DNA from: Gemmatimonadaceae bacterium
GTDB lineage: Bacteria; Gemmatimonadota; Gemmatimonadetes; Gemmatimonadales; Gemmatimonadaceae
Reading direction: 5' to 3'
NCBI GenBank assembly: GCA_051859245.1
Contig: JBHYGA010000001.1
Span: 320,001-384,000 of the forward strand
Length of the DNA stretch: 64,000 nt
Part shown: piece after piece, positions 29,330 to 39,732 of the stretch
How the letters are laid out: every line of letters starts with the position of its first letter
Numbering within the stretch: the stretch's first letter is position 1
Position numbers and translations under genes: made by a program
The notes under the pieces: model-generated
The model's database searches: none
Seen by the model: the letters and a program-made list of their open reading frames with translations, nothing else
Told to the model about the DNA's origin: nothing

Positions 29330-30934
29330 ATGACAGACACTCCCTTTTTGTCCGCCGCCGAATGGCTCCCGGACGCGCTCTTGCTCGTCACGCCCAGTGG
29401 AACCTTGCTTGGCGCCAACCGTGCGGCTCGCACGTTGCTCGGCGAAGGCGCGAGCAATGGCAACGCCGGTGGTTCTCTGCTCGCACTGCTCGATGGTGAT
29501 CGTTCTTCTGTATTGGAGTCTCTCAGAAACGGAGCGCGCACCCGGCAGCCGTTGCCTGGCGCCATTACGTTGAGGATCAGCGCTGACGTTTCGCGACGGT
29601 TTCGCTCGACCGTTCGGCTGCTGCAACCTGCGAGTGCAAACGATCCGGCAGTGCTGCTGCTGCAACTGCAAGAGAATGACGGCGCATCATCACGGTTCAA
29701 GGAACTGAACGATCGATTGGCGCAACTGAACGCTGCGTTGCGGCGGCAGAAAGAAGCGGAGGAAGAGCGCCGACGCCTCGAAGCGCAGATGTTGCAGACG
29801 CAAAAGCTTGAGAGTCTGGGCGTGCTCGCGGGAGGAATCGCACATGACTTCAATAATCTGCTCACGAGCGTGATTGGCTACTGCGATCTCGCGCGCGGCG
29901 AAGTCGCGGGTAACACCGCCGCTCGTGAGTTTCTGGACGAAGCGGTCACCGGGGCTCGGCGTGCGGCGGAGCTCACGCAACAGATGCTGGCGTATTCGGG
30001 CAAGGGCACACTCGTCGTGGGGCCGGTGCAGCTCTCTACGCTGGTCACCGACATCACGCGGTTGCTTGAGGTTTCGATCTCAAAGAAGTGCGTGTTGCGT
30101 TACAACCTGATGGAGAACCTGCCCACCTGTCGTGGTGATGCCACGCAGCTTCGGCAGGTGATCATGAATCTGATCATCAACGCCTCCGACGCGATTGGCG
30201 AGCAGAGTGGTGTGATTGCCTTGACCACAGGAGTTGCGTGGTGCGACAGTGCGTATCTCGCCGAGAATTTTGTTGACGATAATCTGCCAGAAGGGTTGTA
30301 CGTTCACCTGGAGGTGGCGGACACGGGCAGTGGCATGTCACAGGAAACACGCCAGCGCATTTTCGACCCGTTCTTCACTACCAAGTTTACCGGACGAGGT
30401 CTCGGACTCGCGGCCGTGCTCGGTATTGTACGCGGGCATAACGGTGCGATCCGCGTGTACAGCGAACTCGGTCGTGGCACCACGTTCAAGATGCTGTTGC
30501 CGGCCGAGCAAACGCTGGAGCAGGCGTCAGTCGCAGCAGCGCCCGATGCCGTGGCATGGCGGGGCAGCGGATCCATACTTGTGGTAGATGACGAGGAGAG
30601 CATTCGCGGGCTCACTCGGCACATGCTTACACAAATGGGTTTTGACGTAGCGACGGCGTGTGACGGACGCGAAGGCGTGGAGGTGTTTCGCCAGATGCAG
30701 GAAAAGAATCCACTTGTGCTGCTTGACCTCACCATGCCGCATGTCGATGGTGCCGCCGCATTTGCGCAACTCCGTCGGATTCGCCCGGACGTACGCGTGA
30801 TTCTCATGAGCGGCTACAACGAACACTCCATATCCGCGCAGTTCGCAGGAAAAGGGCCGCTGGGTTTTATCCAGAAGCCGTTTCGGCTCAGCGAACTGCG
30901 TGAGTTACTTCGGTCGACGTTGGAGCGGGCTTAG
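29330..30934 (+). CDS. Hybrid sensor histidine kinase (PAS-HisKA-HATPase-REC)
   Basis: QKLESLGVLAGGIAHDFNN, NLIINA, DTGSGM, FDPFFTTK..GRGLGL; receiver VVDDE...LLDLTMP...QKPF. Confidence 0.93.
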   Translation: MTDTPFLSAAEWLPDALLLVTPSGTLLGANRAARTLLGEGASNGNAGGSLLALLDGDRSSVLESLRNGARTRQPLPGAITLRISADVSRRFRSTVRLLQPASANDPAVLLLQLQENDGASSRFKELNDRLAQLNAALRRQKEAEEERRRLEAQMLQTQKLESLGVLAGGIAHDFNNLLTSVIGYCDLARGEVAGNTAAREFLDEAVTGARRAAELTQQMLAYSGKGTLVVGPVQLSTLVTDITRLLEVSISKKCVLRYNLMENLPTCRGDATQLRQVIMNLIINASDAIGEQSGVIALTTGVAWCDSAYLAENFVDDNLPEGLYVHLEVADTGSGMSQETRQRIFDPFFTTKFTGRGLGLAAVLGIVRGHNGAIRVYSELGRGTTFKMLLPAEQTLEQASVAAAPDAVAWRGSGSILVVDDEESIRGLTRHMLTQMGFDVATACDGREGVEVFRQMQEKNPLVLLDLTMPHVDGAAAFAQLRRIRPDVRVILMSGYNEHSISAQFAGKGPLGFIQKPFRLSELRELLRSTLERA

Positions 30935-31626
30935 CGCTCGTCCGCCGCGGCGCCGATTCCGAGTCCCTCACTACCCCCACCTCCGCCGCCACCTCCGCCG
31001 CCACCACCCCCGCCTCCGCCATCGCGGCCCTCGCTTCCGCCCTTACCTCGGCCACCGGATCCTCCTCCACTCGCCGGACGAGTGGGGCCCTGTTTCGGAA
31101 TGGACAGCGCGCTCGGCACCGGCTCAAGGTCGAGCACCGTACGAATAAAATCGCGCAACGAGACTACCAGTTCGTCAGTGTGTACTGGAAGACCCGCGGC
31201 GAGATCTGTCGCGGCCTTCGCGGCGAGTCGCACGTGCTCGTCGTTCCCCAGTAGTATCACGTCGGATAACGCGGCTTCAACGGCATCGCGAATGCGCCGA
31301 GCGCGCTCGCCAGGGCCGGCGATGTCTTCGCTGGATGGGACGCCACTGCCCTCGATCACGTCCACTGCTGCGCGCCGGCTGAGCAAATCGCGCAGATGTG
31401 TGGGATCAACAGACAAGTTGCCGCTGAACGAGCCGCCGAGCGTCTTGTATGCCGCAATCAGTGTGCGCAAGCGCTCGTTGATCTGACGATTCTCCCGCTG
31501 ACGGCGCTGTTGCACTGTTTCCATCACCAACAAGCGAATGCCTACCATCAACAGTGTCACGACGACCAGACTAATCAATGTTGTCATGACGCCCTGCCAC
31601 GAACTGAAATCCATGTTTCGCATCAT
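30931..31626 (-). CDS. Hypothetical membrane-anchored protein with poly-Gly C-terminal tail
   Basis: One N-terminal TM helix, RENRQINERLRTLIAAYKTLGGSF, 16 consecutive Gly. Confidence 0.75.
   Translation of the reverse strand: MMRNMDFSSWQGVMTTLISLVVVTLLMVGIRLLVMETVQQRRQRENRQINERLRTLIAAYKTLGGSFSGNLSVDPTHLRDLLSRRAAVDVIEGSGVPSSEDIAGPGERARRIRDAVEAALSDVILLGNDEHVRLAAKAATDLAAGLPVHTDELVVSLRDFIRTVLDLEPVPSALSIPKQGPTRPASGGGSGGRGKGGSEGRDGGGGGGGGGGGGGGGGSEGLGIGAAADER
30973..31020 (-). repeat. (GGN)16 poly-glycine coding tract
   Basis: 48 nt of GGN codons, including a tandem 12-bp unit. Confidence 0.85.
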
Positions 31627-31656: not shown

Positions 31657-33516
31657 CTAGTTGCTCCGCAGCGCATCGAGCGCCGCCATGGCATCGGGCA
31701 TGTGCTGTTCGAGCGCAAAGTACTCGGGCCAGGGATCATACGTCGACTGCGCCAGATCGGCGGCAGAAAAGATGGAGAAGTGCCCCGCATGATCATACGT
31801 ATCCAGATCGCGCCAACTGATCGGCACTGCAACCGTCGCGCCAGCACGCGCGCGCGTTGACCAGGGAGCGATCGCCGTTGCCCCGCGCTCGTTGCGAAGA
31901 TAGTCAATGAACAACTTGCCCTTGCGGCGCGCCTTGGACATGGAGGCGACAAATCGTGACGGTTCCCGATTGGCCAGCTCCGTAGCGATATCTCGGCAGA
32001 ACTGCTTGATCACCGACCAATCTGCACCGGCCACGATCGGCGCAATCACGTGAATGCCTTTCCCGCCACTCAGCATCGGGAAACTCAGCACTCCGACGTC
32101 TTCAAGCAGTGACGCCACGGTACGCGCGGCATCACGCACCGCAGAAAACCCGAGGGATTCGTCTGGGTCCAGATCAAACACAAGTCGTTCCGGATACTCC
32201 ACCGAATCAACGCACGATCCCCACACGTGCCACTCCAGCGTGTTCATCTGCACACCGGCGATCAGTCCCGCAACATCGCGTACGAAAAAATACTGTTCTG
32301 TGTCTCCGTTTTTCTCCGTGATGGCCACGCGTTGCATTGCTTCCGGAAACCCACCGCTGTCGTGCTTCTGAAAGAAACAGTGCTTGGCCCGACCTTGTGG
32401 ACAGCGCAACAGGCTGAGCGGACGATTGGCAATGAACGGCAGCATGTGGTGAGCCACCGCGTCGTAGTATCCGGCGAGGTCCGCTTTGGAAACGCCCTGT
32501 TCAGGAAAGACAATGCGATCCGGGCTGGTGAGTCGCTGATCCACGCGCGCGGCTGCGGCAACACCACGCGTGGAAAGGTCTTGTTTGTCGAGTGACACGG
32601 CACGTGCAGCCTTGTCCTCGCGGAGTGCGACGAACGATGGGTGACGCAAGCGACCATCCGGCGTGAGCTCCGTGAACGCGATCTCTGCCACCAGATCGGG
32701 CGTGACCCAACGCGCGCCTTTCGCGATCTCGCGCGGTACATCAGCGAAGGGGCTCGTTTTGCGCGATCGCGCATCGAGCTGTTGTTGCAACTGGTGCGAT
32801 TCGTCAACGGTAAAGCCGGTGCCAACACGCCCTCGATAGCGCAGCTCGTCTGATTCCCACGTGCCAAGCAGCAGCGACGCGAACGTGTGCTTGCGTGCGG
32901 ATGGCGTCCAGCCAGCGATGACCAGTTCCTGTCGCTTGCCGCACTTGATTTTGAGCCAGCTTGTCGTGCGCTGGTGCCTGTATCGATCAGTGGCGCGTTT
33001 GGCGATCACGCCCTCGTGTCCGTCGCGGCACACTGCATCGAACACCGCTTGACTGTTGCCGAGTACGTGCGTGGAAAATTGGATCGCGACCGTGGCTGAG
33101 CGCTCGCCCAGCAGGGCTTCGAGTCGTTCCTTGCGCTCGAGCAGTGTCAGCGCGGTGAGATCTTCGCCGTTTTCCTCGAGCAGGTCGAAGGCGAAGAATA
33201 CAAGCGGCGCGCCACCCTTCAGCGCGTCGGTCAGGGTGGAGAAATCTGCGCGACCATCCGGCGTGAGCGCACACACTTCACCGTCGATCAACGCCGTGCC
33301 TTGGGTGAGTGACGAAAATGGTGCGACAAGCGATGCAAACTTGTGCGTCCAGTCGTGACCGTTGCGGGTGTAGAACCGCACGTCGCGCCCGCTCACCGAA
33401 GCAACACAGCGATAGCCGTCGTACTTCAGTTCAAAGGCCCAGTCTACGCCCGCTGGAATCGTATCGGTCAGCGTCGCGAGCTGCGGGGCACGAAAAGCGG
33501 GCAGGGCGTTCGGCAT
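31657..33516 (-). CDS. ligD: DNA ligase D (ligase plus primase-polymerase domains; no phosphoesterase domain)
   Basis: ELKYDGYR, EGVIAK, WLKIK, GRVGTGF, LRHPSF; POL domain RCPQG, FFQKH, FDLDP, SGGKGIH, DYLRN. Confidence 0.95.
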   Translation of the reverse strand: MPNALPAFRAPQLATLTDTIPAGVDWAFELKYDGYRCVASVSGRDVRFYTRNGHDWTHKFASLVAPFSSLTQGTALIDGEVCALTPDGRADFSTLTDALKGGAPLVFFAFDLLEENGEDLTALTLLERKERLEALLGERSATVAIQFSTHVLGNSQAVFDAVCRDGHEGVIAKRATDRYRHQRTTSWLKIKCGKRQELVIAGWTPSARKHTFASLLLGTWESDELRYRGRVGTGFTVDESHQLQQQLDARSRKTSPFADVPREIAKGARWVTPDLVAEIAFTELTPDGRLRHPSFVALREDKAARAVSLDKQDLSTRGVAAAARVDQRLTSPDRIVFPEQGVSKADLAGYYDAVAHHMLPFIANRPLSLLRCPQGRAKHCFFQKHDSGGFPEAMQRVAITEKNGDTEQYFFVRDVAGLIAGVQMNTLEWHVWGSCVDSVEYPERLVFDLDPDESLGFSAVRDAARTVASLLEDVGVLSFPMLSGGKGIHVIAPIVAGADWSVIKQFCRDIATELANREPSRFVASMSKARRKGKLFIDYLRNERGATAIAPWSTRARAGATVAVPISWRDLDTYDHAGHFSIFSAADLAQSTYDPWPEYFALEQHMPDAMAALDALRSN

Positions 33517-33517
33517 A

Positions 33518-34375
33518 TCAACTGGTCTTCCGTTTGGCGGCTGTCTTGCGTGCCGTCTTCTTTACGGGTTTTGCTTTGCCGCTCGCCTCAAGGCTTCGCT
33601 TGAGTGCGGCCATGAGATCGAGCACTTTGGTTTCGCCACGCGCTGCAGTCGCTTCGCCACCGGATACGCTGACGCGCTTGCCCTTGCTTGCGAGCTTTTC
33701 GTCGATCAGCTCGCGCAATGCGGTTTGGTAGTTGTCCTTGAACGCTGCGGCATCAAAGGGCGCCGATTTTTTCTTGATCAGCGCGGTAGCAACCTCTACC
33801 ATTTCAGCATCGGCCTTCTTCGACGAAATCTGCGCGAAGAACGCGTCAGATTTCCGAATCTCGGTTTCGTAGTGCAGCGTCTCAAGCATGATGCCGGTGC
33901 CTGTTGGCTTGAGCGCCACCAGATACTCCTTACCGCGCAAGGCAAGCTGGCCGAGTCCAACTTTTTCAGACTCGCGAAGCGCATCACGGATGACACGGAA
34001 CGCATCTTCGGCCAGTTCGTCTGACGGCACCACGAAGTACGACTTGTCATAGTAGATGGGGTCGATCTCACAGGCCCCCACAAACTGCGTGAGTTCCAGT
34101 GTTTTGCGCGTTTCGAGCTTTACCGCGTTGATCTCCGCGTCGCTCAGCAGCACGTAGTCGCCTTTTTCGTACTCGAAGCCCTTCATGATATCGTCGCGAT
34201 CAACGGGGCCAATACCGGCCACCACCTTTTCGTAGTTGATCGGCTTGCCAGACGGTTCGTGGATCTGCCGAAACGAGGGTTTGGCATTGGACTTTGTGGC
34301 TGTGAAGAGCTCCACCGCGATCGACACGAGTGAGAGTCGAAGCTGTCCTTTCCAGATGGGTCGCGTTGGTGGCAT
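33518..34375 (-). CDS. ku: Ku DNA end-binding protein
   Basis: RPIWKGQLRLSLVSI, KGFEYEKG, IDPIYYDKSY, VLDLMAALKRSL and a basic tail. Confidence 0.96.
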   Translation of the reverse strand: MPPTRPIWKGQLRLSLVSIAVELFTATKSNAKPSFRQIHEPSGKPINYEKVVAGIGPVDRDDIMKGFEYEKGDYVLLSDAEINAVKLETRKTLELTQFVGACEIDPIYYDKSYFVVPSDELAEDAFRVIRDALRESEKVGLGQLALRGKEYLVALKPTGTGIMLETLHYETEIRKSDAFFAQISSKKADAEMVEVATALIKKKSAPFDAAAFKDNYQTALRELIDEKLASKGKRVSVSGGEATAARGETKVLDLMAALKRSLEASGKAKPVKKTARKTAAKRKTS

Positions 34376-34425: not shown

Positions 34426-35472
34426 CTACAGCATTGCAATGACGGCGCTCTCAGACGCTCGTCCATAGTTCCGCGCGTACTCGACCTTGCGCTCCATCGC
34501 CTCGATCACGGTTCGCGTGAAATCGACCTTCTCAAACTCTTCAGCCGAGCCCAGGCCGCCGGGACTGAACACGTTGATCTCCATCAGCTTGTCACCAACG
34601 ATATCCAGTCCGACGAGGAACATGCCGTCCAGAACGAGCTTGGGGCGCACGAGATCAGCGATGCCGAGCGCCACATCGTCGATCTTGGCACGCTTCACCG
34701 TTCCGCCAGCGGAGATGTTGCTCCGCATGTCGCCTTCTGATCGTACACGACGGAACGCGGCAAATTTTCCATCCGTCATCAATGGCACGCCGTTCATGAG
34801 AAACATGCGTGTGTCACCCTTTTCGGCGGCCGGCAGATACTCCTGCGCCACGATGTAGCCATCACGACTGACGGCGTCGATCATCTGATTCAGATTGGAC
34901 GCATCTTCCGGTCGCACCAGAAACACACTCTGGCCACCGGAGCCCTGCAGTGGCTTCAGTACGATCTTTCCGCCTTCGCTCTTGGCGAACGCCTTGATAT
35001 CAGCGCGATCGCGGGTGATGATCGTGCGTGGGCGCACGGCTTCCGGAAAATCCTGGAAATACATTTTGTTGAGCGCGCCGAGCAGCCCATCGGGGTGATT
35101 CAACACTACAAGCCCTTGCCGCATCGCGCGTCGACAGAACACAACGCCCGCCTGAGCGGCCCAGGGCCGTTCAATGGCATCGTCCGATGGGTCACTGCGC
35201 AGCAGGACCACGTCGAGCTCGGACAGCTTGATGCGCTCGACTTCGGCCTTTGGGCCGCGGAGTGCAGCCAAATACGATTCGCCCGATGCGTATTTCTTGC
35301 CAGGCGCCGCATGTGCGCGGGCCATGATGCTTGCGTCGACATCGTAGCCGAAGTCGGCGACACCGATGTAATACGCCTCGTGCCCCATGCTCAGGGCGGA
35401 GAGGGCCAATCGTGTGGTGGTGTAGTTGTCGATTTCTGTTTCCAGCTCGTTCACAACAAAGCCGATCTTCAT
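34426..35472 (-). CDS. Glutathione synthetase-like ATP-grasp ligase
   Basis: DVVLLRSDP, NKMY, VLKPLQGSGG, AQEYLP, GDTR, RSNISAGG, GLDIVGDKLMEINVFSPGG. Confidence 0.88.
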   Translation of the reverse strand: MKIGFVVNELETEIDNYTTTRLALSALSMGHEAYYIGVADFGYDVDASIMARAHAAPGKKYASGESYLAALRGPKAEVERIKLSELDVVLLRSDPSDDAIERPWAAQAGVVFCRRAMRQGLVVLNHPDGLLGALNKMYFQDFPEAVRPRTIITRDRADIKAFAKSEGGKIVLKPLQGSGGQSVFLVRPEDASNLNQMIDAVSRDGYIVAQEYLPAAEKGDTRMFLMNGVPLMTDGKFAAFRRVRSEGDMRSNISAGGTVKRAKIDDVALGIADLVRPKLVLDGMFLVGLDIVGDKLMEINVFSPGGLGSAEEFEKVDFTRTVIEAMERKVEYARNYGRASESAVIAML

Positions 35473-37424
35473 GGCGCGGTCTCGGTGAGAATTTGAATGA
35501 GTGATTGGCTTTGCCGCAGACGCTGCATTCTGGTCTCAGCGCCGAACGCCGTGAGAAATCGTGGGGTAATTCGTGGTGGTCGCAAATATTCGCGCCACCG
35601 CAGCTCCTGAACCGCTGGCACATCGGCAAGCGCGAGTTTTCCCAGCAACAAGGGTTCGAGTTCGCCGCCAGCGCGCAGATACGAGAGAAACTCCTGCAAC
35701 CCTCGCAGGTAAATCAGATCCTTGGTGAGTCCACCGCTGCGGTACACGCGCATGCAGATGGTGAACGCCGTGTTTGGCGCGAAATCGTATTCGTTGGTGA
35801 GCAGACGGTAGCAGTCAACAAACGGTGCGCCGTCCACGAGCGCACGTACGGCAATCACTCGTCCGGCCAGCACGCGAACGCGACTACCGGTGAGCGCACC
35901 GGTCAGATACTCCGACGTCACGGCGAGCCCTTCCTGCGTTTCTTCGTAGCCGGCCAACCCGCTCGCAAGCTGGCTCAGCGGCTGGGCAAGTCCGTTCGAG
36001 TAGGTGACCACGTGCGTGCCAATCTCATGCTGCACAAGCGCTCGCGCACGCGTTGGTGTAACGCGCAGTGAATGTCCAATCAGCAAGTCACCCTCAGACA
36101 CGAGTACGCCGGCCACATCGGTGCGAATGTGCACCCTGGCGTTCAGTCCGGCGTATACGCTTCGGTAGTGCGATAGCTCGTCTTCGGCCATCGCGGCAAA
36201 CCCCGTTGCGGTGACCACACCTTCCGTATCCGGCGCGTCATCGTCGTCATCGTCCGCACTCGTTCGCTCGGAAACGCGAAGCAGCGTGACCGCTAACTCG
36301 TGTAATGCGTCACTGACCTCGCCGTACACGGAAAGACTACCATACATAAATCGCGACGTGTTGCGGTCGCCCAGCATCGTGAGCTTCCGCGAGAGTTCAC
36401 CGCGACACGCTGACAAGAGATTGGCAAGCGTGGGGTCCTCAAGCTGCTCCAACGGAAGATTGTACAGTCGACGTTTGAGCGAGGCGACGTCAACGATGAG
36501 CGGTCGATAGTCAAACTCCGGATCGCGATCTGCTCCATCGCGCATGAACTGCGCACGCGCACGGTCGGCGTTCACCGGTGTGACTTGCAGCAGGAAGTCG
36601 AATGATCGCGAGATCTGTGTGAGCGCTGCATCGGCTTCTTGCACCGCACGCACCGCGGTGCGACGACCCAGTGCGTGAAAGTGCGACGGCTCGAGCGCCG
36701 TATGCAGTTGCACGAAGTGATACGCCGTTTGCCGAATGGCCAGCGACATGCCGCGCCGGAGCGTCTCGAACAACACCGGGTACGGTGTGCCGGTGCGCGC
36801 CTGCCGATACACGGGTTGCACTTCGATGCCAATCGCGGTGCAGCCACCGGTATGCTGTCGAACACACGTCAGGAGCTCACCCAGCGTGGGCGGAGACGGT
36901 GATCCGTGTGTGTCCACTTCAACGTCCAGCGGTGGTGGCCGCAGCGGTATGTTGCTGAGTGCCTTCCGCAATGCGCGTACGGTTGGATCGTCGGCCGGCA
37001 ACACGGGCGACACGATCCGAAATGTGGGGTCTGGTACTTTGCGCGCCGCGTCCACACCTTCGCGTCTTGTTTCGGCCGTCCATACTTCGAGCAGCAGAAA
37101 CTCGCCGAACTTCTCCACCATCACGTCGGCGATGGCGCTCACCAGTTGCTGAAGTCGAGCATGAAGCTCCAGGCTGCCTGGTGCAATCAGGTGGGAGGCC
37201 TCACCGATGATCATCTGCGACGTCGGGCCCACGGTATCCTGCGCCGGCTCGCGATACACACACAGAAATGGCAACGCGCGGTCAATGTGCAGTCGACCTC
37301 CTCCGGGGAGCGAACGACGCACACCATGCCCCTGTCGCAGCCGTTCACACACCTGCGCAATGAACGCCGGCGTGATACGCTGTCGCGCCGAAATCGAGTT
37401 GTTCGTGGTGGCGATGTCGGGCAT
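35469..37424 (-). CDS. QEGLA-motif / DUF1704 (MATCAP-like) metallocarboxypeptidase with N-terminal extension
   Basis: HEIGTH (HExxxH), TQEGLA, RVYRSGGLTKDLIYLRG, GK; N-terminal GGRLHIDRALPFLCVYR domain. Confidence 0.9.
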   Translation of the reverse strand: MPDIATTNNSISARQRITPAFIAQVCERLRQGHGVRRSLPGGGRLHIDRALPFLCVYREPAQDTVGPTSQMIIGEASHLIAPGSLELHARLQQLVSAIADVMVEKFGEFLLLEVWTAETRREGVDAARKVPDPTFRIVSPVLPADDPTVRALRKALSNIPLRPPPLDVEVDTHGSPSPPTLGELLTCVRQHTGGCTAIGIEVQPVYRQARTGTPYPVLFETLRRGMSLAIRQTAYHFVQLHTALEPSHFHALGRRTAVRAVQEADAALTQISRSFDFLLQVTPVNADRARAQFMRDGADRDPEFDYRPLIVDVASLKRRLYNLPLEQLEDPTLANLLSACRGELSRKLTMLGDRNTSRFMYGSLSVYGEVSDALHELAVTLLRVSERTSADDDDDDAPDTEGVVTATGFAAMAEDELSHYRSVYAGLNARVHIRTDVAGVLVSEGDLLIGHSLRVTPTRARALVQHEIGTHVVTYSNGLAQPLSQLASGLAGYEETQEGLAVTSEYLTGALTGSRVRVLAGRVIAVRALVDGAPFVDCYRLLTNEYDFAPNTAFTICMRVYRSGGLTKDLIYLRGLQEFLSYLRAGGELEPLLLGKLALADVPAVQELRWREYLRPPRITPRFLTAFGAETRMQRLRQSQSLIQILTETAP

Positions 37425-38216
37425 TCAGTCGCCTACCTGATGCAAGGACTGCTCCAGCTTGGGCACAAGCAGCGCCAGCGCGTCGCGAATCGCTCGAACG
37501 TGCCCGGGATACGGTTCGCCGGTCCACTCATCCATAAACGATTTGCGAAACTCGATCGAGATCGAGCAGGCGTGTTCGCGGAACGTGCGGTGCACCCACT
37601 GCGAGAAGTGGCCACCTTTGAACTTGACGTTCTCTCGGACGTCGAGCGTGCGGCCAAGCATGTCGACCGATCGCAAGTGTTGCACCACGCAATCCACCAC
37701 CGGTGCCCACCGAACACGATCCATGCTGCCCGTGCCAATGTTCACTTCCGGGTTGGATGCTTCGTCTGCTGGCGGCGCATCGACCCCATCACGACGATGG
37801 TTGTAGCTGTGCAGGTCCAACACCACGAAGTGCCCCCACTGCTGGCGCATCTGCTCCAATGTTTCGGTCGCCGCGGCGTAGAACGCATCGTACTGCGCGA
37901 GCGATTCGGCGATCATCTCCGGCGTCGGGGGTTCGCGCCAGACGCGCAGCCCCCATGCGTCCTCCGGCGTCTGATACACGGCTTTCTCGCGCGGTCGATT
38001 GAGGTCACATTCGAATCGTGAGCGCAGGCCGATCAGGCGTGTATCGACGACGTCGACCCACTGCGCCGTGTACGGGTCCTCTTCCCGCAGACGCTCCGGC
38101 TCGCTGAGTGCGATCGCGTCGCGCACGGTGTCGCGCAACGCGTGGCCGTCATGTATGGCGGCCGTGGCGACGGGAACGTCATGTCCGAGGTGAATAGCGA
38201 AGCTGTTCGTCACCAC
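37425..38216 (-). CDS. N-formylglutamate amidohydrolase family protein
   Basis: AIHDGH, REEDPYT, SRFECDLNR, LDLHSY, NIGTG, FKGG, SIEF. Confidence 0.88.
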   Translation of the reverse strand: MVTNSFAIHLGHDVPVATAAIHDGHALRDTVRDAIALSEPERLREEDPYTAQWVDVVDTRLIGLRSRFECDLNRPREKAVYQTPEDAWGLRVWREPPTPEMIAESLAQYDAFYAAATETLEQMRQQWGHFVVLDLHSYNHRRDGVDAPPADEASNPEVNIGTGSMDRVRWAPVVDCVVQHLRSVDMLGRTLDVRENVKFKGGHFSQWVHRTFREHACSISIEFRKSFMDEWTGEPYPGHVRAIRDALALLVPKLEQSLHQVGD

Positions 38217-38348
38217 AGAGTCGACACCGCCCGTAAGAACGTGTTCCCATGAGTGTGAGGCGTGTCACGAACGAAACTGTCGCCCTCGGGCTTCGGGAAC
38301 GGTTCAGTGCAACCTTCCGCATTGTCGTGGAAGCCGTATGTTAGAGCC

Positions 38349-38789
38349 ATGAGCGTTTTCGAAGGCCTCACCCGCCGGCGCTGGTTGCTCACCATGCTGT
38401 CCGCCAGTCTGAGCGTGGTTCCGCGCGCGCTGCGCGCGCTGCCTTCGCGTGCGCTGGCTGCGCGTGCGCGCACGGACCACCCAACGCCGCGACGTGGCAT
38501 CACGGGCGCCAGGGTGGCCACGCCGGCCATGCTCGACGGCGACGCTGTGCTGATTGAGCTCTTCGACGCCGTCAGGGCGATTCCCGCAGTGGTCGACGGC
38601 ATTCGTTGTCACTGCGGATGCGCTGACCTGCACGGGCACTATTCGCTGCTCACGTGTTACGAAGGCGCGAACGCGATGGCCCGGATCTGCCCGATCTGTC
38701 AGGGCGAGGGCCGTGTTGCCGTGCGTATGGCAAAAGCTGGTCGCTCGCTCGCTGATATCCGGATTGCGATTGACGCGCAATACGGCTGA
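38349..38789 (+). CDS. PCYCGC-motif-like small Cys-rich protein with Tat-like signal
   Basis: RCHCGC...SLLTCY...CPICQ...IR.AID..YG; N-terminus LTRRRWLL. Confidence 0.78.
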   Translation: MSVFEGLTRRRWLLTMLSASLSVVPRALRALPSRALAARARTDHPTPRRGITGARVATPAMLDGDAVLIELFDAVRAIPAVVDGIRCHCGCADLHGHYSLLTCYEGANAMARICPICQGEGRVAVRMAKAGRSLADIRIAIDAQYG

Positions 38790-38823
38790 ACATGTGCTGA
38801 CTCACCGCCAAACGTCGAGACCA

Positions 38824-39732
38824 ATGCTTCGCCATCTGACCGCACGCCTGCTGTCGTTCAGCATCGCATTCGTTGTGCCTCCCTCTGCCGCCTCGGCGCA
38901 GATCAGAGCCAGCGAGTTGCAAAGCATCTCGCAGATCGTGGACGGCACGAAGGTGACCATCGAATACTCGCGACCACGTTTGCGCGGACGTGATGTGGTG
39001 TTTGGGACCCGCGCCGTGAAATGGGGCGAAGTGTGGACACCGGGCGCCAACTGGGCGACGACGCTTGAAACAGATCGCCCGATCATGCTGTCGGGTGTAC
39101 GCGTGCCCAAGGGCAAGTACGGGCTCTGGATGATCGTGCAGCAGGATTCGTCGTGGACCATGTTGCTCGATCCTGTGTGGCGACAGTTTCACATGGATCA
39201 CCCCAAGCCGTCTGATCGTCACATCAAGGTGACGGTGAAAGCGGATTCAACCGCAGCGTGGAGTGAGGAAGCGCTCACGTTTTCCTTTCCGTCGGTAACC
39301 GCGCGAGGGGCCACGATTGCCATGCACTGGCATCGCATGCGCATCAGCATGAACTACACCGTGGAGCCAACACTCAGCGAGATGCTGCCTGAGTCAGAAG
39401 CGGCGCCGTATCTTGGACGGTATGCGTTAACGGGCAATCCTCCCGACACGACAACGGCCGCGCTCATTGTCTCCTACGAGCGTGGCGGCTTGAAGGCGCG
39501 TTTTGAGCCGGAAGACACATACATGCAAACGTTTGCGCTCATGAAAGTAGCGCCTGGCATCTTCACTGCGGGCCTGTACATGGCCGCCGAGGTCTTTGCG
39601 GCGGGCGAAATCTACGAAGTGATGCGTCCTGACTTCATGCTCACGTTCGCGGAGAAAGATGGTGTCATGCAGTTCGAAGTGCGTGGCAGCAAAGATGAAC
39701 TGTATTTTTCAGGTCGTCGAGTCGCCAAATAG
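38824..39732 (+). CDS. DUF2911 domain-containing secreted protein
   Basis: VTIEYSRPRLRGR, VWTPGANWAT, VPKGKYGLW; signal peptide. Confidence 0.85.
   Translation: MLRHLTARLLSFSIAFVVPPSAASAQIRASELQSISQIVDGTKVTIEYSRPRLRGRDVVFGTRAVKWGEVWTPGANWATTLETDRPIMLSGVRVPKGKYGLWMIVQQDSSWTMLLDPVWRQFHMDHPKPSDRHIKVTVKADSTAAWSEEALTFSFPSVTARGATIAMHWHRMRISMNYTVEPTLSEMLPESEAAPYLGRYALTGNPPDTTTAALIVSYERGGLKARFEPEDTYMQTFALMKVAPGIFTAGLYMAAEVFAAGEIYEVMRPDFMLTFAEKDGVMQFEVRGSKDELYFSGRRVAK

Follow-up and report, generated by a model that had tools for sequence, protein, structure and literature searches.

A three-gene bacterial module of a GshB-like ATP-grasp ligase, a MATCAP-type peptidase and an FGase-like hydrolase

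The DNA considered here is a stretch of 64,000 nucleotides from a Gemmatimonadaceae bacterium (assembly GCA_051859245.1, contig JBHYGA010000001.1, positions 320,001 to 384,000; hereafter the window), and its subject is a trio of co-directional genes on the minus strand. In operon order these encode an FGase-family zinc amidohydrolase-like protein, a two-domain protein with a MATCAP-type metallocarboxypeptidase domain (the peptidase) and a GshB-like ATP-grasp ligase (Table 1). The genes abut or overlap: the TGA stop codon of the FGase-like gene (37427-37425) is followed immediately by the ATG of the peptidase gene at 37424 (GACTGAATGCCC), and the peptidase and ligase genes share an ATGA overlap at 35472-35469 (CCATGAAG). 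A check of the open reading frames (ORFs) reproduced exactly the gene boundaries and the tight coupling given by a first-pass annotation made from the letters alone, and the HEIGTH and QEGLA motifs that it had placed in the middle gene lie there. The putative catalytic motifs are intact in all three enzymes, which together would make up a peptide ligase with dedicated trimming enzymes.

Table 1. The gene trio, its protein domains and its motifs, in window coordinates
Feature	Position	Strand	Description
FGase-family zinc amidohydrolase-like protein	37425-38216	minus	263 amino acids, GTG start, operon gene 1
MATCAP-like two-domain protein	35469-37424	minus	651 amino acids; predicted degenerate FGase-fold N-domain and MATCAP-type metallocarboxypeptidase domain
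GshB-like ATP-grasp ligase, NF009110 (PRK12458) subfamily	34426-35472	minus	348 amino acids, final gene of the trio
Peptidase N-terminal domain, residues 19-242	36699-37370	minus	diverged FGase/M14-like fold, probably non-catalytic
MATCAP-type catalytic domain, residues 265-648	35481-36632	minus	structure match and invariant residues
HEIGTH (HExxxH zinc-binding/catalytic motif)	36012-36029	minus	from the translation; H466, E467 and H471 invariant in alignment A1
QEGLA motif	35922-35936	minus	from the translation; Q497 and E498 invariant

A gene trio inherited as a unit

The trio is inherited as a unit, far beyond what chance would give, and has no fourth partner. The peptidase, used in a pattern search, retrieved 23 loci in Gemmatimonadota, Bacteroidota, Actinomycetota and Acidobacteriota; these are near relatives selected by the query, and samples of whole phyla were added as an unbiased set. 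The order FGase, MATCAP, ligase on a single strand is kept in all 21 loci whose contigs extend to both sides. The other two were excluded, one contig beginning (L007) and the other ending (L022) inside the peptidase gene, and in a further three (L024-L026) some of the trio genes are split by frame breaks. The same order is also kept on rhizobial plasmids, namely Sinorhizobium meliloti pSymB (at 1122942-1126743 in strain 1021, and HB773_22925 to 22935 in CP050512) and plasmids of Shinella. The first-pass annotation had tied its proposal to the three genes being found together in other genomes, and together they are found.

Among 201 Gemmatimonadota genomes, the window genome included, the MATCAP domain (PF08014) is present in four, or in three of 200 if the unpublished genome G097 is left out. 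Scores of 186-197 bits against the GshB model TIGR01380 are confined to these four genomes and always belong to a gene adjoining the MATCAP gene, the other matches to this model across the sample being one GshB over the cut-off, one protein at 278 bits and the rest at 78 bits or less. In G050 and G153 an FGase gene is also present at the locus, making up the full trio, and that of G097 sits at the end of a different contig. The Bacteroidota sample (251 genomes) contains 11 genomes with a ligase of the NF009110 type at E<=1e-80, ten of them over the model's cut-off, and in every one of the 11 a PF08014 gene lies no more than 2.2 kb away from the ligase gene, on its contig and strand. PF08014 was found in 12 genomes of this sample; the twelfth, G310, has two fragments of it (109 and 88 amino acids) and no ligase. 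Over both phylum samples, this type of ligase is linked to a MATCAP gene in 15 of the 15 genomes that carry it, and a ligase is present in 15 of the 15 with an intact MATCAP gene.

Some individual loci depart from the standard form. The two short MATCAP fragments without a ligase (G310:C1:1018941-1019460) look like a decayed module, and at G422:C1:4089530-4095223 the MATCAP gene has an NF009110-type ligase copy on either side, of which one contains an in-frame TAA.

No conserved fourth gene emerged from all-against-all clustering of the ORFs at these loci, which recovered only lineage-specific synteny, and Pfam annotation of 116 flanking ORFs from 22 loci revealed no common flanking partner. 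In the Acidimicrobiia-type loci (L013 and L016-L019), large adenylate/guanylate-cyclase proteins, some with DUF4062, AAA or TPR domains, are encoded within three genes of the trio, a proximity that appears to be lineage-specific synteny.

Family assignments of the three enzymes

The ligase carries the Pfam domains GSH-S_N (E 1e-9) and GSH-S_ATP (PF02955, E 2e-49), in agreement with its first assignment to the GshB-type ATP-grasp enzymes, and keeps the GSGG loop, the R-x-N...GG segment and the E-I-N-V motif of GshB. The segment that aligns to the lid loop of E. coli GshB is conserved among the ligases (D.RSN...GG). Its nearest solved structure is E. coli GshB itself (1gsa, E 1.8e-35 over residues 2-331), the next solved relatives being the RimK structures 5zct, 4iwx, 7qyr and 7qys at about 1e-7. 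The ligase exceeds the cut-off of NF009110 (PRK12458; 439.4 bits against 408), a model over its cut-off in none of 14 control genomes. It falls below both GshB equivalog models (204.1 against 272 for NF003573 and 186.3 against 299.05 for TIGR01380) and does not reach the RimK model TIGR00768 (66.1 against 143.4).

A maximum-likelihood tree was built from 36 rows; the frame-broken ligase of L026 was left out, and rows L034 (G097) and L039 (G057) rest on unpublished genomes. The 27 trio-linked ligases form one clade (support 94/97) with the window ligase inside it. The two GshB rows (G091, 366 bits; G187, 278 bits) group apart with support 99/97, a modest test in that GshB is represented by these two long branches only. 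RimK-like proteins fall outside the clade of trio ligases, and the position of a Photobacterium ligase row is unresolved in the tree.

The window genome (4.70 Mb, 99.87% complete) holds no other GSH-S_ATP gene, and a glutamate-cysteine ligase (gshA, PF04262) has no match anywhere in it. Its single GCS2 protein, on a different contig, is a carboxylate-amine ligase of the YbdK type (522.7 bits against a cut-off of 371 for NF010039) and lies below the cut-off of every glutamate-cysteine ligase equivalog. Weak gamma-glutamylcysteine ligase activity has been reported for the YbdK-type family. The gene for this protein directly follows one for a PuuD-like gamma-glutamyl hydrolase/amidotransferase, the two forming a second amidoligase pair in this genome (G000:C5:701635-703671, or 664-2700 of L002).

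Because it scores below the equivalog cut-offs, falls in a separate clade, has no gshA to partner it and is accompanied in Photobacterium damselae by a separate and differently regulated gshB (see below), the ligase is, as far as sequence can tell, not a bona fide GshB, and the module would not make glutathione. The first-pass annotation had argued the same from the lack of a gamma-glutamylcysteine ligase gene in the window, a lack that extends to the whole genome, and had named clustering with genuine GshB as the result that would speak against it; the tree separates the two.

The peptidase matches the MATCAP domain over residues 292-638 with 295.5 bits (gathering threshold 27, E 7e-88) and scores 316.3 against the QEGLA equivalog TIGR02421, a model that spans residues 265-634 only and whose cut-off of 338.65 is not attained. 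The metal motif is HExxxH, not HExxH. Across the 78 peptidase sequences of alignment A1, H466, E467, H471, Q497 and E498 are invariant together with R515, R522, R559 and R611, and Glu498 of the QEGLA motif is likely to be the third zinc ligand. An AlphaFold2 model of the whole protein (predicted local distance difference test, pLDDT, 92.2; predicted TM-score 0.92) was compared with solved structures, and VIA-align placed its residues 278-648 on human MATCAP (7z6s_C/7z5g_A) with Z 24.4 and a root-mean-square deviation of 3.2 over 294 residues; Foldseek matched the C-domain to MATCAP at E about 1e-6. The homology between DUF1704/QEGLA proteins and MATCAP, with which the first reading had begun, is thereby borne out for this protein. 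A sequence search of the PDB found no match for the peptidase or for the FGase-like protein. The long form of the peptidase (about 600-660 amino acids) is found in at least 150 representative clusters at 50% identity.

Pfam matches nothing in roughly the first 260 residues of the peptidase at E<=10, and the ESM Atlas gave no usable match for this region. A profile of residues 1-262 from the 78 sequences aligned in hhalign with the neighbouring FGase-like family over 211 columns (probability 89%, E 2.4e-6), against control probabilities of 1.4% with the ligase and 0.1% with the C-domain. The best VIA-align match to residues 40-241 is N-formylglutamate amidohydrolase 2q7s (Z 12.9, root-mean-square deviation 4.1, 185 residues), with weaker fold matches to M14 carboxypeptidases (Z about 10) and to the phage poly-gamma-glutamate hydrolase 3a9l (Z 9.7). 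No histidine is conserved in the N-domain, and E113 and W115 sit where D134 and H136 of the FGase would be. By profile and predicted fold, this unannotated domain of about 240 residues is homologous to the FGase-like neighbour and has lost the putative catalytic residues, which is a new observation in this analysis and had escaped the first-pass annotation; the domain may be a pseudo-enzyme or a binding domain. That an intact-looking FGase holds its place in a Photobacterium fusion protein suggests that the N-domain is a decayed FGase copy.

The FGase-like protein matches PF05013 with 78.7 bits (cut-off 28.9, E 9e-22). The top Foldseek matches to its AlphaFold2 model (pLDDT 95.2) are N-formylglutamate amidohydrolase 2q7s (E 1.8e-14, TM about 0.7) and 2odf, and subsequent matches are M14 carboxypeptidases, including bacterial CCP-like enzymes, PghP and the tubulin deglutamylase CCP5, so that both the family first proposed for this protein and its kinship with zinc exopeptidases hold. 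The family acts, as its name says, on N-formylglutamate. An alignment of 22 homologues has 43 invariant positions, among them H22, H25, E45, E46, D47, D134, H136 and E222 and six arginines. The gene is the only PF05013 gene of its genome. Identification as hutG was considered and rejected: the score against the HutG equivalog TIGR02017 is 32, far below the cut-off of 278.75, and hutU lies at C1:1447723, some 1.09 Mb from the operon (C1:354426-358216), consistent with the earlier remark that the window contains no hut gene.

Directly after the ligase gene of Photobacterium sp. DA100 comes one gene, which encodes a fusion protein of 662 amino acids. Residues 29-264 of this protein match the FGase-like hidden Markov model at E 6e-53 and that of the peptidase N-domain at merely 2.4e-12, and residues 298-650 match the MATCAP domain. 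The fusion retains 35 of the 39 invariant FGase-like positions that were checked, including all eight putative catalytic ones. The FGase-MATCAP fusion is a new result of this analysis, and because it joins an intact-looking FGase to the MATCAP domain, it provides Rosetta-stone evidence that the two hydrolases are probably tied functionally.

Beyond the trio and the fusion, Pseudoalteromonas plasmids encode a stand-alone QEGLA protein of 426 amino acids (WP_002958615) that has no N-domain and no ligase or FGase neighbour. With long-form trios, the short-form trios of Actinomycetota, the fused duo and the stand-alone protein all found, the bacterial MATCAP family occurs in at least four contexts. 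On the plasmid of Pseudoalteromonas sp. HL-AS1 (L031; NZ_CP133570.1, 655849-666778) the QEGLA gene has the betIBA genes (glycine-betaine synthesis) on one side and the ast genes (arginine succinyltransferase) on the other. This is an osmoprotectant setting, whether or not it has any bearing on the salinity response of the Photobacterium pair. PA3697 of Pseudomonas aeruginosa is presumably also a QEGLA protein. It is cited as affecting the promoter of fhp, the flavohaemoglobin gene (PMC8070244, citing Koskenkorva 2008), and PA3697 is probably the source of the database name 'flavohemoglobin expression-modulating'.

Expression data come from P. damselae, for which an RNA sequencing study describes a 'glutathione synthase' gene, RS17020 (557979-559007), overlapping that of a QEGLA protein of 660 amino acids, RS17025 (558991-560973) (PMC10308900). 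At 1% compared with 3% NaCl, the two are up 38.4-fold and 27.5-fold, respectively, and are among the top induced genes, and the bona fide gshB of the organism (RS03915, 315 amino acids) changes by -1.6-fold (PMC10308900). The expression sheet has no formylglutamate entry (PMC10308900), which fits the fused form.

Other genes surround the operon in the window. On the same strand, a Ku gene (33518-34375, 285 amino acids) starts 50 nucleotides downstream of the ligase gene and a LigD gene (31657-33516, 619 amino acids) lies beyond it, the LigD product having ligase and primase-polymerase domains and no detected nuclease domain; Ku and LigD constitute a non-homologous end-joining pair. Promoter and terminator scans at the trio gave nothing above shuffled expectation, with no terminator-like site above chance between the trio and the pair, and co-transcription is possible in the window genome. 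Ku-LigD was rejected as a part of the module and its adjacency is treated as incidental, because the pair is missing from the flanks of related loci, save for one distant LigD match in L013. A further ORF on the minus strand (30931-31626, 231 amino acids) has one predicted membrane-like stretch at its N-terminus and, at its C-terminus, a stretch of some 30 glycines interspersed with occasional Ser, Arg, Lys, Glu and Asp residues (GGGSGGRGKGGSEGRDGGGGGGGGGGGGGGGGS). On the plus strand, divergent from the operon (38262-39732), overlapping ORFs are listed for a PCYCGC-motif protein (PF13798) and a DUF2911 protein. Because the DUF2911 domain occupies residues 121-266 of an ORF of 392 amino acids, translation of that gene probably begins well inside the ORF.

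Possible function and alternative explanations

The reading favoured here, tentatively and with somewhat less than even confidence, is that the three genes form a self-contained module acting on one shared substrate, a strongly anionic, probably glutamate-containing, small soluble peptide and most likely not a protein. Such a peptide would be made from free amino acids. The GshB-like ligase would spend ATP on converting a carboxylate into an acyl-phosphate, to which it would then add an amino acid, for which GshB with gamma-Glu-Cys and RimK with Glu serve as models. The MATCAP-type HExxxH domain would trim residues from the C-terminal end of the product, and the FGase-like enzyme would split the final N-acyl-amino-acid-type bond, beyond the reach of the carboxypeptidase. 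The degenerate N-domain would probably serve to bind this same chemical group or to dock the FGase-like enzyme. With the genes for making and degrading the peptide in one operon, the cell could adjust its level or length quickly, possibly as an osmotic or ionic response.

A poly-carboxylate substrate may be expected because invariant arginines are many in both hydrolases. The leaning towards a small peptide follows from the lid-loop segment kept by the GshB-like ligase, from the action of the FGase family on a small N-acyl-glutamate, from the lack of any target gene conserved beside the module and from the apparent ability of the module to work after transfer between phyla.

Several points weigh against this reading. 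The identity of the substrate is purely inferred, and a ligase co-expressed with two hydrolases of its product resembles a futile ATP cycle unless it is regulated; neither the clustering of locus ORFs nor the Pfam annotation of their flanks revealed a conserved regulator. The MATCAP enzymes of known structure have a protein tail as their substrate, a point in favour of protein tagging. The short-form peptidases of Actinomycetota have no N-domain, which is therefore dispensable for the core chemistry. As for an osmotic or ionic role, genes related to ions (CitMHS with TrkA_C, a Na/H exchanger and an MscS channel) lie within three genes of the trio at 3 of 22 loci, a count with no baseline for comparison. 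Furthermore, the P. damselae pair is assigned to the module from annotation, gene length and overlap, and its salinity response, which hints at a role in osmotic or ionic conditions, was recorded in a single organism, in which the module would have the fused two-gene form.

The strongest alternative, a serious rival although less likely, is reversible tagging of a protein tail, the main reading of the first-pass annotation, in which the ligase would add one or more amino acids to the C-terminus of a widely conserved protein, much as RimK does with ribosomal protein S6 or TTL/TTLL with tubulin, and the two hydrolases would erase them. The close fit of the C-domain to the tubulin-tail carboxypeptidase MATCAP (Z 24.4) argues for it, RimK is the second-closest solved relative of the ligase, and an extra domain of binding type in the peptidase would suit recognition of a macromolecule. 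TMCPs and CCPs jointly trim polyglutamate tails (PMC10499314), and CCP5 is among the fold matches of the FGase-like protein. Set against these points, the 22 loci have no candidate target gene conserved beside the module, and the ligase resembles GshB (E 1.8e-35) far more than it does RimK (about 1e-7), retains the loop of the GshB type and does not attain the RimK model (66 against 143 bits). PF08014 is also patchily distributed (4 of 201 and 12 of 251 genomes), and the module moves between phyla, so the tagged target would need to be a universal protein.

Less probable still is a role in salvage or catabolism, in which the hydrolases would free amino acids from an imported or recycled acidic peptide and the ligase would re-use an intermediate. 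Candidate substrates would be an oligo- or poly-glutamate, an N-acyl-glutamate, or a glutamyl tail of the cell-wall or folate type. Relatives of both hydrolase folds do degrade poly-gamma-glutamate (PghP, 3a9l; YndL, 5onj) and N-formylglutamate, and transporter genes lie near some of the loci, MFS and ABC on the rhizobial plasmids and CitMHS, the Na/H exchanger and MscS elsewhere. However, clustering and flank annotation found no transporter or binding protein conserved with the module, and an ATP-consuming ligase in all 15 sampled genomes with an intact MATCAP gene would be unusual for a purely degradative route.

Ordinary metabolism as the database names imply, with the ligase a glutathione synthetase, the FGase-like protein HutG and the adjacency of the peptidase meaningless, is very improbable: RefSeq does call the rhizobial plasmid homologues 'glutathione synthase' and 'N-formylglutamate amidohydrolase', the two genes are the sole GSH-S_ATP and PF05013 genes of a genome that has hutU, and a YbdK-type ligase could supply weak gamma-glutamylcysteine ligase activity, but the scores are far under the equivalogs (204 against 272 and 186 against 299 for GshB, 32 against 279 for HutG), the ligase clade is separate from the GshB rows, no PF04262 gshA is present, hutU is about 1.09 Mb distant and this ligase type is tied to a MATCAP gene in 15 of 15 carrying genomes. 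The separate, oppositely regulated gshB of P. damselae (PMC10308900) argues in the same direction.

Significance and comparison with known systems

Bacterial relatives of MATCAP are thus found in a fixed partnership with an ATP-grasp ligase of their own and a hydrolase of the FGase fold, and the module so formed moves among at least five phyla. Two of its three genes are currently annotated as 'glutathione synthase' and 'N-formylglutamate amidohydrolase', names that mislead the reconstruction of metabolism. A literature search found no biochemical characterisation of the module, and Iyer et al. 2009, on amidoligases, may already describe the gene association. The module is present in tractable organisms, notably on pSymB of S. 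meliloti, where its product could be found by standard genetics and metabolomics. Knowing that product would bring to light either a metabolite not seen before, a small acidic peptide, or a way in which bacteria modify protein tails, and would show what role MATCAP-type enzymes had before tubulin. A more speculative idea, and a doubtful one, is that the trio represents an ancestral bacterial 'tail code' module, in which the ligase would build short glutamate-rich chains, free or at a protein C-terminus, and the MATCAP-type and FGase/CCP-like enzymes would trim them, buffering cations or osmotic shifts; such a module would be the source of the eukaryotic MATCAP/TMCP enzymes.

Of the known proteins, the stand-alone QEGLA proteins (TIGR02421; Pseudoalteromonas WP_002958615) share the MATCAP-type domain and its QEGLA motif with the window peptidase, but they are of about 426 amino acids, lack the N-domain and have no ligase or FGase neighbour, whereas the window protein stays under the TIGR02421 cut-off. 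E. coli GshB (1gsa) has the GSH-S_N and GSH-S_ATP domains and the key motifs in common with the ligase; unlike GshB, the window-type ligase is always linked to two hydrolases, misses the GshB cut-offs and has no gshA partner.

Systems that couple synthesis with trimming offer further parallels. In Pseudomonas, RimB is the co-encoded antagonist of RimK. The RimABK system, which carries out poly-alpha-glutamylation of ribosomal protein S6, resembles the trio in encoding an ATP-grasp ligase with a product-trimming enzyme, although the window hydrolases come from quite different families and the RimK model is missed by the ligase. In cyanophycin metabolism (CphA synthetase, cyanophycinase and isoaspartyl dipeptidase) the genes for synthesis and breakdown are clustered. 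There too a builder of the ATP-grasp type works alongside one enzyme for shortening the product and another for splitting the small unit left at the end, but there is no protein homology with the trio beyond the ATP-grasp fold.

The eukaryotic tubulin tail cycle (TTL/TTLL, MATCAP/TMCP1-2 and CCP) likewise combines an ATP-grasp amino-acid ligase, a HExxxH carboxypeptidase of the MATCAP family and a hydrolase with an M14-like fold. TMCP1 and TMCP2, the human members of the MATCAP family, cleave Tyr and Glu from C-terminal ends and trim chains of polyglutamate, in an account whose available part mentions bacteria solely as expression hosts (PMC10499314). The differences from this cycle are that the window ligase is of the GshB type and not the TTL type, that the third enzyme belongs to the FGase family and is not a CCP, that the bacteria have no tubulin tail and that the window trio is encoded in one operon. 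In the peptidase, what appears to be a degenerate FGase-fold domain stands in place of the microtubule-binding region of MATCAP. Judged on the predicted models, the comparison with the tubulin enzymes holds up structurally.

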